Source: Escherichia coli (GTDB lineage Bacteria > Pseudomonadota > Gammaproteobacteria > Enterobacterales > Enterobacteriaceae). From it: a stretch of 64,000 nucleotides of DNA. How positions within the stretch are numbered: position 1 is the first letter of the stretch; each line of letters starts with the position of its first letter. Below are positions 11,057 through 56,032 of this stretch, one piece after another. The stretch is taken from the NCBI RefSeq assembly GCF_003790525.1, contig NZ_CP033635.1, one strand, 5' to 3'. Position numbers and translations under genes: made by a program. The notes under the pieces are model-generated. The model made no database searches, had not been told where the DNA came from, and was given only the letters and a program-made list of their open reading frames with translations.

Positions 11057-11875
11057 TTATTCGGGGGAATAAGGTAGATGTGGATAGTCCAGCCAGTGCG
11101 TCAAATAGTGAGAGACAGCCTGATTTCGGCAATGTCCAATCACCGGTAAATGCGGGAGCTCCGCGCGCAGTTGCGGCATCGCATTGCCCATAATAAATCC
11201 GCTACCGACACTGCCTAACATTTCGCGATCGTTCATCGCATCACCAAAGGCCATGCAATCGCGTAACGATAAACCTAAATGTTGGGTCAGCACCGTCAAT
11301 GCAGCGCCTTTATTGCAGCCCACCGGCAGCACTTCGAGGCAATCCGTGGCGGAAAAACATAAATGTGCACGCTCGCCTAATGCTTCGTATAGCTGGATCT
11401 GCAAGCGTGTAAGATCGTCGTGATCGCCACAGAAGCAGATCTTGGTGACGCTGCCGAGTGGCATTTTTTTGACATCGATTATCTGATAACGAAAACCGCT
11501 ATAGACAAATGCCTGCAACAACGCAGGGATCTCTTTCCCGGTAAACCAACCGTCGTCATTGAAGATATGCATGCTGGCTCGGGTATCCCATTGCTGATAC
11601 AGCACCAGCTCCGCGACATCCGCAGGTAAATCATCACGATGTAAAAGTTCACCTTCCAGAGAATGCACGCGCGTTCCGTTGCCAGTAATCAAATATGCAT
11701 CCAGCGATAGCGCCCCGAGAATATGCTGCATCTCCAGCGCATGACGCCCCGTGGCAAAAGTGAGGGTAATGTCGCGTTCACGCAGCCGCGCCAAAGTAGA
11801 GAGGGTTTTCTCACCTAAATGATGGTCAGGCATCAATAAAGTGCCATCCATATCAAATGCTGCCAGACGAGCCAT
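11057..11875 (-). CDS. cof: HAD-superfamily phosphatase Cof (HMP-PP phosphatase)
   Basis: ORF to 11887; HAD motif [10 protein letters not shown]; ~272 aa. Confidence 0.9.
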
Positions 11876-52071: not shown

Positions 52072-52099
52072 ATGCCGGATTTCATATCCGGCATTTTTT
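52072..52099. terminator. rho-independent terminator downstream of tsx (shared with convergent yajD)
   Basis: GCCGGAT-TTCAT-ATCCGGC followed by TTTTTTA. Confidence 0.85.
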
Positions 52100-52100
52100 A

Positions 52101-52448
52101 TCACTTCTTCTTGTTCATCATCGCTTTCAGGTCAGCGAATGGGTTGTACTTCGCTTCACCGACATCTTTCTGCGCATCTTCCCCTGCGATAACGGTCGTA
52201 CCATACTGATCCGCTTCGGTATATTTCGAATGCTCATGATCGTGGCAATAGAGACAAAGCAATTCCCAGTTACTGCCATCTTCCGGGTTATTGGTATGGT
52301 CGTGATCAATGTGGTGAACGGTAAGTTCACGCAGGTTGGAATAAACAAACTCACGGGAACAGCGACCGCAGACCCACGGATAGATTTTTAATGCTTTTTC
52401 GCGATAGCCGCTTTCTAACCGCGCATAGTTTTTTGGGATGATAGCCAT
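52101..52448 (-). CDS. yajD: HNH nuclease family protein YajD
   Basis: 115 aa; HNH/zinc motif CxxC...HH...C..CH. Confidence 0.9.
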   Translation of the reverse strand: MAIIPKNYARLESGYREKALKIYPWVCGRCSREFVYSNLRELTVHHIDHDHTNNPEDGSNWELLCLYCHDHEHSKYTEADQYGTTVIAGEDAQKDVGEAKYNPFADLKAMMNKKK

Positions 52449-52535
52449 GAAAAGTTACCTGGATGAAATGTAGGGTTACGCGCAGTTTCCCAAGATGCGG
52501 GGATTTTCGCAATCCTGAGTCAAGAAATTCTCACA

Positions 52536-52817
52536 TTACCAGTGACGGCGAGGTTCCATCAGCTGATGAAGAATGCGCGCAATGAGAATGTCATCGACTC
52601 TTATAACGTAATAAACAGTGTGAAACCTAAATGCGATCTTCTTTACCTCTGGAATCGCATCATAGTCTTGCCCTATCTCGGGCATTTGAGAGAGTGTATC
52701 CAGAAAAATGCCGAGAGAGTCGGTATAGCGATCCGCCTGCTCCTCACCAAACTTTCCCAGCGTGTAGTCATAGATCCCTCTGAAATCTTCAACAGCTTTT
52801 CCGCTAAGCTTATACAC
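52536..52817 (-). CDS. ParE/RelE-superfamily toxin of a type II toxin-antitoxin pair
   Basis: ORF 52536..52850; likely GTG start whose GTGTATAA overlaps the antitoxin stop, giving ~93 aa; ParE-like core. Confidence 0.7.
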   Translation of the reverse strand: MYKLSGKAVEDFRGIYDYTLGKFGEEQADRYTDSLGIFLDTLSQMPEIGQDYDAIPEVKKIAFRFHTVYYVIRVDDILIARILHQLMEPRRHW

Positions 52818-53052
52818 GATGTTTTTGCTTCCTTTCTGCTGCGATATCACGAAGCGTCATCGAACTTTCACCGCTCTCAAGACCTTCAATAACAGCATTT
52901 CTGACAGCTTCATCCCTGGATTCTTGTTGTTCCAATAGACGAAGCGCTGAACGCATTACTTCACTGGCCGAGCCATAACGACCAGACTGGACCATCCGTG
53001 TAATAAAACTATCTAATTGTTCGCCAACGCTTACTGAGGTAATTTTGCGCAT
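52810..53052 (-). CDS. ParD-family (RHH/CopG-like) antitoxin
   Basis: 80 aa; ...SGRYGSASEVMRSALRLLEQQE...GLESGES... typical of ParD/COG3609 antitoxins; directly upstream of and overlapping the toxin. Confidence 0.75.
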   Translation of the reverse strand: MRKITSVSVGEQLDSFITRMVQSGRYGSASEVMRSALRLLEQQESRDEAVRNAVIEGLESGESSMTLRDIAAERKQKHRV

Positions 53053-53065
53053 AAGCGATCTCCAT

Positions 53066-53082
53066 GTATTAACTATTAATAC
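53066..53082. promoter_or_regulatory. palindromic operator candidate upstream of ParD antitoxin gene
   Basis: GTATTAA-CTA-TTAATAC perfect 7-bp-arm inverted repeat 15-30 nt upstream of the parD-like start, overlapping a -10-like TATTAAT. Confidence 0.5.
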
Positions 53083-53142
53083 AAAGTATATGTCAGAACT
53101 CTTTCTACAACCAAACCGTATTCAGTTGCATGTGAAACAGGC

Positions 53143-53180
53143 AAAAAAAACCGCAGCGCAAATACGCCACGGTTTTTTTA
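53143..53180 (-). terminator. terminator downstream of secF
   Basis: On minus strand ACCGTGGCG...CGCTGCGGT imperfect hairpin followed by T8. Confidence 0.6.
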
Positions 53181-53202
53181 ACAGAACGGATTTAAAACAC
53201 CC

Positions 53203-54174
53203 TTAAGGCAGAATTGACGGCTGATCCGCCCCTTCTTTTTCCACTTTCTGCTGCAGCATGTGTTCGCGCTTCATACCCAGTTTCAGAGCCAGCGCCGATG
53301 CTACGTAGATGGAAGATGCAGTACCGATGGAAACACCGATAAGCATGGTCAGCGAGAAGCCTTCCAGTACCGGACCACCGAAGAGGTACAGCATCAGGAT
53401 AACCATCAAGGTAGTACCGGATGTGATCAAGGTACGGTGCAGCGTCTGGGTCAAGGACACGTTAAAGATTTCGTAAGGCGTACCGCGACGGATCTTGCGG
53501 AAGTTTTCACGAATACGGTCCGATACCACGATACTGTCGTTAAGCGAGTAACCGATAACTGACATCAACGATGCCACAATGGTCAGGTCAATCTCGATAT
53601 GGAATAACGACAAAATACCCAGCGTAATGATAACGTCGTGCGCCAGCGCAATAACAACCCCTGCCGCCAGTCGCCACTCAAAGCGGAAACCTACGTACAC
53701 GAGGATAGACAGCAGCGCCGCCATCAACGCCATCGCACCGGTTTGCGCAAGGTCTGCCCCCACGCTCGGCCCGACGAACTCAATACGCTTCACTGCCGCA
53801 TTCTGATTGGTGGATTCGTTAATCACCTTCAGAACCTGGCTGCCCAGCACCTGACCGCCGGTTTCGCCTTCAGCAGGCGGCATACGGACCATGATGTCGT
53901 GGCTGCTACCAAAGTTTTGCAGCATCGGCTCTTCAAAACCGGCTTTTTGCAATGCATCACGCATTACGTCAATTTCAGCCGGTTTTTCGAGCGTAATTTC
54001 AATAACCGTACCACCGGTGAAATCCAGCCCCCAGTTAAAGCCGCGCACGCCCATAATAACGATAGCGGCGATTAACAGCAGACCAGAGATGCCGAAAGCC
54101 CAGTAGTCCCAGCGCATAAAGTCATAGACTTTACGGCCGTGGTTTAGTTGTTCAACAGTATATTCCTGTGCCAC
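53203..54174 (-). CDS. secF: protein translocase subunit SecF
   Basis: ORF 53203..54219; GTG start at ..[18 protein letters not shown] gives 323 aa. Confidence 0.95.
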
Positions 54175-54184
54175 ATCGCACTCC

Positions 54185-56032
54185 TCAGATTGACAGCTTC
54201 TTGACGCGCTTGCCGCCATATAGCAGGTTTACGATGGCACGCGTACCGACAATCGCGGTAAACATCGACGTCGCCACACCGATACCGGTAGTAATCGCGA
54301 ACCCTTTAATTGCCCCGGTACCCACTGCGTACAGGATGATGACTTTAATCAGCGTGGTGATGTTCGCATCGAAGATGGAACTGAATGCGCCACGATAACC
54401 TTCATCAATTGCCTGTTGAACAGTACGTCCGTTGCTCAACTCTTCTTTAATACGTTCGTTGATCAGTACGTTCGCGTCGACCGCTACCGCAAGGGTTAAG
54501 ACGATACCCGCGATACCTGGCATACTCAGCGTTGCGCCTGGCAACAGCGACATAATACCGACGATCAAGATCAAGTTGGCAATCAGAGCACTGGTCGCAA
54601 TCAGACCAAACTTCTTATAGAAGATGATCATGAACAGAATAGAAACCAGCAGACCGGCAAGGCAAGCCTCCAGCCCCTGCTCAATGTTCTGCATACCCAG
54701 GGTCGGGCCAATTGTACGTTCTTCAACAATCTGAATCGGCGCGATCAACGCACCGGCACGCAGCAGCAGTGACAGCTGACGGGCTTCGTTCGGGTTGTTG
54801 ATGCCGGTGATACGGAAGCTGTTACCCAGACGAGACTGGATGTTAGCGATGTTAATCACCTCTTCCTGTTTCACCAGAACCGCACGACCGTTAGCATCTT
54901 TCTTGCCGCTGTCTTTGTACTCCACAAACAGGGTCGCCATCGGTTTGCCGATGTTGTCCTTGGTGAAGTTAGACATAATGTTGCCACCTGCGCTGTCGAG
55001 CGAGATGTTAACCTGCGGCTGGTTGTATTCGTCCTGGCTGGAAGTGGAGTCGGTGATATGGTCACCGGTCAGAATTACGCGTTTGTACAGCACAACCGGC
55101 TGACCTTCGCGGGTCTGTTTCACTTCAGAGTCGCCCGGTACGCGGCCGGATGCCGCAGCGGCCTGATCAACGTTGGTGTTTACCAGACGGAATTCCAGCG
55201 TTGCCGTCGCACCCAGAATCTCTTTCGCACGCGCGGTGTCCTGAATACCTGGCAGTTCAACAACGATACGGTCAGCACCCTGACGCTGAACCACCGGCTC
55301 CGCCACGCCAAGTTGGTTTACACGGTTACGCAGGATATTAATGTTCTGCTGCACCGCATATTCACGCGCTTCACTCAGACGAGCATCGCTCATTACCGCA
55401 CGCAGCTGGTTGCTGCCCTGGCTGCTAATCACCAGGTCCGGATGGCGCTTGCTCAGATACGCAATGGCTTCATCACGAGCTTTAGCATCGCGGAAAGTGA
55501 TGCTCAGGCCGTAGTTGTTTTCTTTACGAACGGTGGTATACGGGATGCCCTTTTCACGCAGGTCGCTGCGCAGGCTATCGATATTTTGTTCCTGGAGTTT
55601 GCCAAGCGCGGTGTCCATATCCACTTCCATCAGGAAGTGAACGCCGCCACGCAGGTCAAGGCCGAGCTTCATCGGCTCAGCGTGAATAGCTGCCAGCCAG
55701 CGCGGCGTTGCCGGGGCAAGGTTAAGCGCCACGACGTATTTGTCACCCATAACGCCCATTAATGCTTCACGAGCGCGCAGCTGGGTGTCAGTGGAGTCGA
55801 AGCGCGCAAGAATAGCGCCCTCTTCCAGTGCCACAGACTTAGCAGTTATTTTTTCTTCTTGTAACGTTTTCTGGACCTGGATCAGCGTTTGCTCACTGGC
55901 GGCGACTCCGCGCGCACCAGTGATCTGAACAGCCGGATCCTCACCAAACAGGTTGGGAAGCGCATACAGCAGACCGATGACAATCACCACGATCAGCATG
56001 ACGTACTTCCACAAAGGATAACGGTTTAACAC
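54185..56032 (-). CDS. secD: protein translocase subunit SecD
   Basis: 615 aa; [31 protein letters not shown]. Confidence 0.97.

Follow-up and report, generated by a model that had tools for sequence, protein, structure and literature searches.

A conserved 19-bp dyad directly downstream of the predicted parDE promoter of Escherichia coli is probably the operator for autorepression by ParD

Autorepression via a dyad in the promoter is the standard mode of control in type II toxin-antitoxin systems, and the mechanism considered here is therefore not new in itself. Operators of the Arc and CopG type are roughly 20 bp in size and overlap the promoter, and they are bound by two ribbon-helix-helix (RHH) dimers residing in adjacent major grooves about one turn apart, with the N-terminal β-strand reading the bases (Raumann 1994; Gomis-Rueth 1998; both as cited in PMC9731233). 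The operator of the parDE2 system in Vibrio cholerae consists of three GGTA / GTA[C/T] boxes without a long dyad and is read by a 6:2 ParD:ParE complex; two boxes are located 10 bp apart between the -10 element and the Shine-Dalgarno sequence, and the footprint of ParD2 together with ParE2 extends from -21 to +13, overlapping the core promoter and the start site (Garcia-Rodriguez et al. 2024, PMC10776004). In the ParE_SO/CopA_SO system of the Shewanella oneidensis prophage CP4So, where the operator reads GTATTAC-CTA-GTAGTAC, CopA_SO represses its own promoter via the motif GTAnTAC-N3-GTAnTAC, to which it binds with a Kd of ~16 nM and no longer binds once the repeats are destroyed (PMC8706911). 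PrpA from the prpAT system of Pseudoalteromonas rubra sits as a tetramer on its own promoter in the model of its authors, with a motif (G/A)TTTG(T/A)AAT(A/G) that is maybe asymmetric, and also binds plasmid replication iterons (PMC9731233). For E. coli O157:H7 a validated system 'parD_EDL933-parE3' has been listed (Leplae 2011, PMC3141249), which may correspond to the parDE locus between yajD and secF that is considered in the following. A literature search returned no paper on this locus or on its dyad motif, and no operator described for the ParD clade to which it belongs.

The locus resides in a window of 64 kb, i.e., the whole stretch of DNA that was analysed, the sequence of which is 100% identical to that of E. 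coli SMS-3-5. On the minus strand, positions 52810-53052 code for an antitoxin of 80 aa with an N-terminal RHH domain (WP_001226938.1), which is identified as ParD by its matches to the profiles PF03693 (E = 1.7e-22) and TIGR02606 (E = 1.2e-27, 95.7 bits at a cut-off of 46.2) as well as to the structures of V. cholerae ParD2 (7B22, E = 2.9e-19, residues 1-69), 3KXE (E = 1.9e-13) and PrpA (7YCS, E = 1.4e-8). On the same strand follows a gene for a ParE toxin of 93 aa (52536-52817, WP_000277485.1, PF05016 with E = 6.9e-14), which has a GTG start and begins within the end of parD with an overlap of 8 nt. The neighbouring genes secD (54185-56032), secF (stop at 53203) and yajD (52101-52448) are all located on the minus strand, and tsx on the plus strand.

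Alignment to a cassette-free E. coli genome shows that parDE belongs to a presence/absence block between yajD and secF (52515-53200), which takes the place of some 65 nt, terminator hairpin included, of the spacer otherwise found between secF and yajD. Within the inserted cassette, secF is followed by a terminator-like inverted repeat on the minus strand, i.e., a hairpin with a T-run (53144-53179), that differs from the hairpin in the cassette-free genomes and was not reported by a strict terminator scan because of G-T pairs and mismatches in its stem. The cassette is present in 424-426 (~8%) of 5426 complete E. coli genomes, in the chromosome every time. Amongst the carriers, 334 are of the O157:H7 / O55:H7 type with an allele that is 97.3% identical over the promoter region, and further ones are SMS-3-5-like strains.

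A preliminary description of this DNA had reported a perfect 7-3-7 palindrome upstream of a ParD-like gene, located between the secF terminator and the start of the antitoxin. The palindrome, GTATTAA-CTA-TTAATAC, is indeed read at 53066-53082, between the hairpin at 53144-53179 and the ATG at 53052, and perfect dyad symmetry even extends to 8-3-8, giving the 19 bp of TGTATTAA-CTA-TTAATACA at 53065-53083. This dyad ends 12 nt upstream of the ATG of parD and is followed after 1 nt by the Shine-Dalgarno sequence GGAG (53063-53060), which is spaced 7 nt from the ATG. When the 60 nt upstream of parD were shuffled by mononucleotides, with loops of 0-5 nt allowed, perfect arms of at least 7 nt were obtained in 2.4% and of at least 8 nt in 0.6% of cases, the respective values for the whole intergenic region of 150 nt being 4.2% and 1.2%. 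The full dyad pattern occurs only once in the 64-kb window, even when three mismatches are allowed. Since perfect dyads with 8-nt arms occur at about 14 other places in the window, the dyad is, judged by the window sequence alone, only moderately unlikely to be there by chance, and as such suggestive. Perfect dyads were noted, e.g., at 54117-54133 within the coding sequence of secF (TAAAGTCATAGACTTTA, a 7-3-7 dyad) and at 52073-52093 between the convergent genes tsx and yajD (TGCCGGATTTCATATCCGGCA), the latter of which looks like a terminator shared by these two genes.

For comparison with other genomes, 19 ParD homologues were aligned and the alignment was used to gather 80 loci from one-genome-per-species contigs. 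Their ParD proteins are 51-84% identical to the one in the window and come from Enterobacter, Pantoea, Xenorhabdus, Photorhabdus, Yersinia, Serratia, Erwinia and others and, beyond the Enterobacterales, from Acinetobacter, Vibrio, Rheinheimera, Marinobacter, Shewanella and others. A dyad of the form TGTrTkAA-N3-TTmAyACA is present at all 80 loci in unrelated flanking DNA, in each case 9-24 nt upstream of the start codon. On a consensus score with a maximum of 16, the 81 loci consisting of the 80 relatives and the window reach 12-16, and 75 of them at least 14, whereas none out of 5300 control windows of 80 nt from the same loci reaches 14 (42 reach 12) and the best score in 1620 shuffled upstream regions is 13. 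In an information profile computed from the 53 non-redundant loci having far-upstream DNA less than 60% identical, the information is about 0 bits upstream of the dyad except for a TTG at -29 to -27 and a TAnnnT at -6 to -1 relative to it, reaches 1-2 bits within precisely the 19 bp of the dyad, and then drops again, there being no conserved positions in this profile besides the dyad and the promoter hexamers. The dyad is likewise found at the same place on all four viral contigs with close ParD homologues and in all three close plasmid loci (IncT, IncR and IncFII/IncX5). Two further repeats in the window, namely an imperfect overlapping repeat of 17 nt at 53063-53092 and ATAC-TTT-GTAT across the -10 element, are not conserved in the relatives and were dismissed as incidental.

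A gene for ParE is located downstream of parD in 67 of the 80 relatives, the others mostly having an orphan ParD or a decayed ParE, with one locus ending too early to judge. In 11-12 loci that carry an orphan ParD without an intact ParE the dyad is retained (L008, L014, L038, L043, L047, L048, L056, L065, L071, L081, L083; in L043 a truncated ParE remnant follows parD), which indicates that it is tied to ParD rather than to ParE. With respect to the arms of the dyad, the allele of the O157:H7 type has a C instead of a T at 53065, which leaves the 7-3-7 core intact and breaks the eighth, outermost pair, and an equivalent change in the opposite arm is found in two Photorhabdus loci (L017 and L021); the outermost base (positions 1 and 19) therefore seems to be the least constrained position of the arms.

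In the reverse direction, an exact scan of IMG/VR for TGTGTTAA-N3-TTAACACA, the variant of the dyad with G at position 4 of the arms (see below), returned 23 viral contigs, none of them with a ParD nearby, so that the 19-mer motif alone is not diagnostic of ParD; the forward association leading from ParD to the dyad stands unaffected by this test. Amongst the 23 contigs there are several that share a single, recurrent phage sequence, others with isolated hits, and one with an iteron-like set of repeats. The recurrent sequence, GATGATGTGTTAATAGTTAACACAGTTGTCA, contains the exact dyad, is shared by about nine contigs (L084, L086, L089, L090, L097, L099, L101, L104, L105) and is unrelated to ParD. 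The set of repeats is found on contig L093, where TGTGTTAA-N3-TTAACACA is present five times within 270 bp (11430-11700), four times exactly and once in degenerate form, inside a minus-strand ORF of 394 aa, each copy encoding SVLK(F/I)NTD and again without a ParD nearby; the arrangement resembles that of iteron-type repeats within a replication-type (rep-like) gene.

Next to the dyad, the relatives have a conserved -10 element with T at -6, A at -5 and T at -1, a conserved TTG 17 nt above this TAnnnT in the place of a -35 element, and a G-rich ribosome-binding patch downstream of the dyad. The TAnnnT abutting the dyad together with the TTG further up is predicted to be a sigma-70 promoter. In the window the corresponding elements are a predicted -10 TATACT on the minus strand (53085-53090), which lies 1 nt upstream of the dyad, and a predicted weak -35 TTGGTT (53109-53114) with a spacer of 18 nt. 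A scan of 52400-53400 for consensus promoters and terminators reported no site, and TTGGTT was not picked up because it matches at three of six positions with the threshold of the scan being four. The Photorhabdus loci from the clade of the window have TTGGTA, 18 nt and (C/T)A(C/T)ACT, and the plasmid copies a near-consensus TTGACA, 17 nt and TATCAT followed by the dyad. The preliminary description had also proposed that the palindrome overlaps a -10-like TATTAAT. This sequence does occur within the dyad, yet no -35 is found 16-18 nt away from it, and it is missing in most relatives: the majority G-variant, TGTGTTAAT, lacks TATTAAT and has GTTAAT instead, in which the A at hexamer position 2 is missing, so that TATTAAT was rejected as the conserved -10. 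The -10 predicted by comparison is TATACT (53090-53085), and as this hexamer lies directly upstream, the dyad would cover the start site rather than the -10 itself. At the usual distance of 6-8 nt from the -10, transcription is predicted to start in the promoter-proximal arm on the minus strand (53077-53080), and the dyad would then span roughly -5 to +14.

With these data at hand, several roles of the dyad can be weighed against that of a ParD operator. That it is a functionless palindrome which arose by chance in AT-rich intergenic DNA could be argued from the other perfect dyads in the window and from the viral contigs that carry the exact G-variant without a nearby ParD; yet shuffling of the 60 nt upstream gives a probability of only 0.6-2.4%, all related loci conserve the dyad against divergent flanks, and the upstream flank identity of less than 60% and the protein identity of 51-84% exclude recent copies of one cassette. 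The comparative sequence data thus place the dyad beyond chance, and the likelihood of this explanation is negligible. If the dyad acted at the level of the RNA, it would form a stem-loop in the 5' leader of parDE that governs translation or mRNA stability, and a stem of 8 bp with a loop of 3 nt can in fact form, with 90% of the arm positions being complementary over 65 distinct sites. However, the fold is weak (-7 kcal/mol, z = -1.07, 35 of 200 shuffles being at least as good), GGAG stays unpaired, and with the -10 abutting the dyad the transcript should start within the first arm. Furthermore, the observed complementarity of 90.2% compares to 88.2% with the partners shuffled among the sequences, so that the symmetry stems almost entirely from the conservation of each half-site by itself. 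Pairing is lost at position 6 in 26 and at position 8 in 12 of the 65 sites, T and G at position 6 occur independently in the two arms (24 T/T, 15 T/G, 6 G/T, 7 G/G), and the primary sequence hardly varies from one class to another, a constraint that a stem would not impose. A search of Rfam gave no family match, the sole hit being Leu_leader with 16.9 bits at a gathering score of 50 (E = 0.8), and the scan of 52400-53400 found no terminator-like G+C-rich stem with a U-tract at the dyad. The pattern of substitutions in the aligned sites fits two degenerate protein half-sites and not an RNA stem, making the RNA explanation very unlikely.

As E. coli genomes either carry or lack the cassette as a block, the dyad might also be considered as a recombination or insertion site at the end of a mobile parDE element. 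The boundaries of the block at about 52515 and at the secF stop (~53200) are, however, at least 120 nt away, and in every context the spacing of the dyad is constant relative to the ATG of parD and to the -10 but not to any junction, which leaves hardly any room for such a role. Less far-fetched, though still improbable, is binding by a protein other than ParD alone, e.g., a host global regulator, a nucleoid protein with a preference for AT, or only the complex of ParD and ParE. The site is AT-rich, the protein bound to it is itself a prediction from sequence comparisons, and for the V. cholerae system DNase I gave a clear footprint with the 6:2 ParD:ParE complex only (PMC10776004). On the other hand, the dyad travels with ParD across genera, plasmids and phage contigs, which does not fit a host-specific factor, orphan ParD loci retain it, the equivalent place is taken by different dyads in other ParD clades, and ParE alone does not bind DNA in the cited systems (PMC10776004).

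The explanation favoured here, with a probability of about 85%, is that the dyad at 53065-53083 serves the parDE promoter as the operator through which ParD represses its own operon. The earlier proposal of an operator for autorepression by the RHH antitoxin is supported by the identity of the protein as ParD, the presence of the dyad throughout the family and its fixed position relative to the promoter; and as the dyad abuts the conserved -10 and -35 elements, it is found where an autorepressor would be expected to bind. Binding and repression by ParD are inferred from this conservation and from family precedent. According to the proposed mechanism, transcription of parDE on the minus strand would be driven by TTGGTT and TATACT with their spacer of 18 nt, and the dyad, which begins 1 nt after the -10 and stops 1 nt before the Shine-Dalgarno sequence, would be occupied by ParD dimerised via its N-terminal RHH domain. 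Two dimers, one per arm, with their centres 10-11 bp and hence about one helical turn apart, could insert their β-ribbons into successive major grooves, and ParD bound over the start site would then block RNA polymerase there, either excluding or stalling it. ParE, carried on the C-terminal tails of ParD, would probably tune the occupancy of the operator according to the ratio of toxin to antitoxin.

The dyads of different ParD proteins are not all alike, and the two arms shift in step from clade to clade, in keeping with the role of an operator. ParD proteins starting with MRKIT(S/T)(V/I)S have an A at position 4 in both arms (TGTATTAA...TTAATACA) at 15 of 15 loci including the window, which correspond to seven unique combinations of site and N-terminus, while the xRTTS(V/I)TI proteins have a G in both arms in 36 of 54 unique combinations, the exceptions including several xRTT proteins with A in one or both arms. 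The residues by which the ParD proteins of the A- and G-variant clades differ are located in the N-terminal β-strand. If the N-terminus of CopG (MKKRLTITLSE) is aligned with that of ParD, residues 4, 6 and 8 of ParD come to lie at the base-reading positions, and these are I/S/S in the A-variant clade as compared to T/S/T in that of the G-variant. Judged from the paired variants, a link between the residues of the β-strand and position 4 of the operator is suggested, and the association rests largely on one clade and may go back to a single event.

More distant ParD clades have different dyads at the same position, namely TGTATTAC-N3-GTAATACA in a clade encoded on Yersinia and Serratia plasmids and TGTAAGAA-CAA-ATCTTACA for a ParD from an Enterobacter IncF plasmid. 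In Serratia marcescens (L115, 365-383) and Yersinia enterocolitica (L116, 369-387), where ParD begins with MARVTSVTLGEH, the former dyad comes directly after TATAAT or TATATT. On the viral contigs L111-L113 the palindrome CATGTCA-N5-TGACATG is located about 20-40 nt before the start of a ParD-like gene that is only distantly related (MPNVSLTPELEGF). Plasmids of E. coli and Enterobacter (L119, IncR; L120, IncFII/IncX5) encode a ParD that is 75% identical to the one in the window behind a promoter TTGACA-17-TAT(C/T)AT and a G-variant dyad, TGTGTTGA-TAG-TTAACACA, so that chromosomal A-variant and plasmid G-variant systems can occur in the same species.

It is conceivable, though on balance rather doubtful, that the 19-bp dyad and the β-strand of ParD form a small and evolvable recognition code, with three clades reading three different arms. 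In such a code the chromosomal clade of E. coli, Photorhabdus and Pantoea (MRKITSVS; I4, S8) would read TGTATTAA, the widespread clade that includes the IncR, IncT and IncF/X plasmids (MARTTSVT; T4, T8) would read TGTGTTAA, and the Yersinia pYV-type clade (MARVTSVT) would read TGTATTAC. If this were true, symmetric switches of a single base could insulate co-resident parDE paralogues from cross-repression, and where the operators coincide, a plasmid-encoded ParD could silence the chromosomal copy.

What is added here to the general scheme of autorepression is a predicted consensus operator, TGTrTkAA-N3-TTmAyACA directly after the -10, for a large ParD clade that spans the parDE genes in the chromosomes of E. 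coli O157:H7 and SMS-3-5 as well as cassettes on IncR, IncT, IncF and IncX resistance plasmids. The consensus provides a ready target for EMSA and reporter experiments and may help to predict where parDE systems on plasmids and in the chromosome engage in cross-talk, and the natural operator variants paired with variants of the β-strand offer material for studies on the specificity of RHH proteins.

With respect to the known systems, PrpA is a ParD-family RHH antitoxin like the ParD of the window, for which nothing comparable to the PrpA motif or to iteron binding was seen. Arc and CopG belong to other protein families and have other half-sites, and the geometry proposed for the dyad would hold by analogy to their operators. 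With the operator of CopA_SO the window sequence GTATTAA-CTA-TTAATAC shares the layout of two 7-bp boxes with a gap of 3 bp, and it agrees with the CopA_SO motif at six of seven positions per box and at 12 of the 14 fixed positions overall, as compared to five of seven positions per box in the G-variant clade and a full match to GTAnTAC-N3-GTAnTAC at the Yersinia and Serratia plasmid loci (L115, L116). The boxes of CopA_SO are, however, each palindromes of the 3-1-3 type, whereas those of the window are not, their innermost base being A/T instead of C/G, and the dyad of the window is a global one. Both proteins are of the RHH type and are set apart by sequence search alone, in that searches of the PDB with the protein and with the profile returned no chain of 7ETR or 6IYA at E values up to 10. 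The closest solved homologue of the window ParD is V. cholerae ParD2 (7B22/7R5A), with which it shares the RHH domain and the disordered tail. Instead of three GGTA boxes within ~33 bp the window has a single 19-bp dyad, neither GGTA nor TACC occurs in 53053-53130, and a third upstream box as in V. cholerae was rejected because no positions outside the dyad and the hexamers are conserved. Since V. cholerae ParD2 uses this different operator grammar, its stoichiometry is not simply transferable to the ParD of the window. The position of its two boxes in the interval between the -10 and the Shine-Dalgarno sequence is the very position at which the dyad of the window is found.
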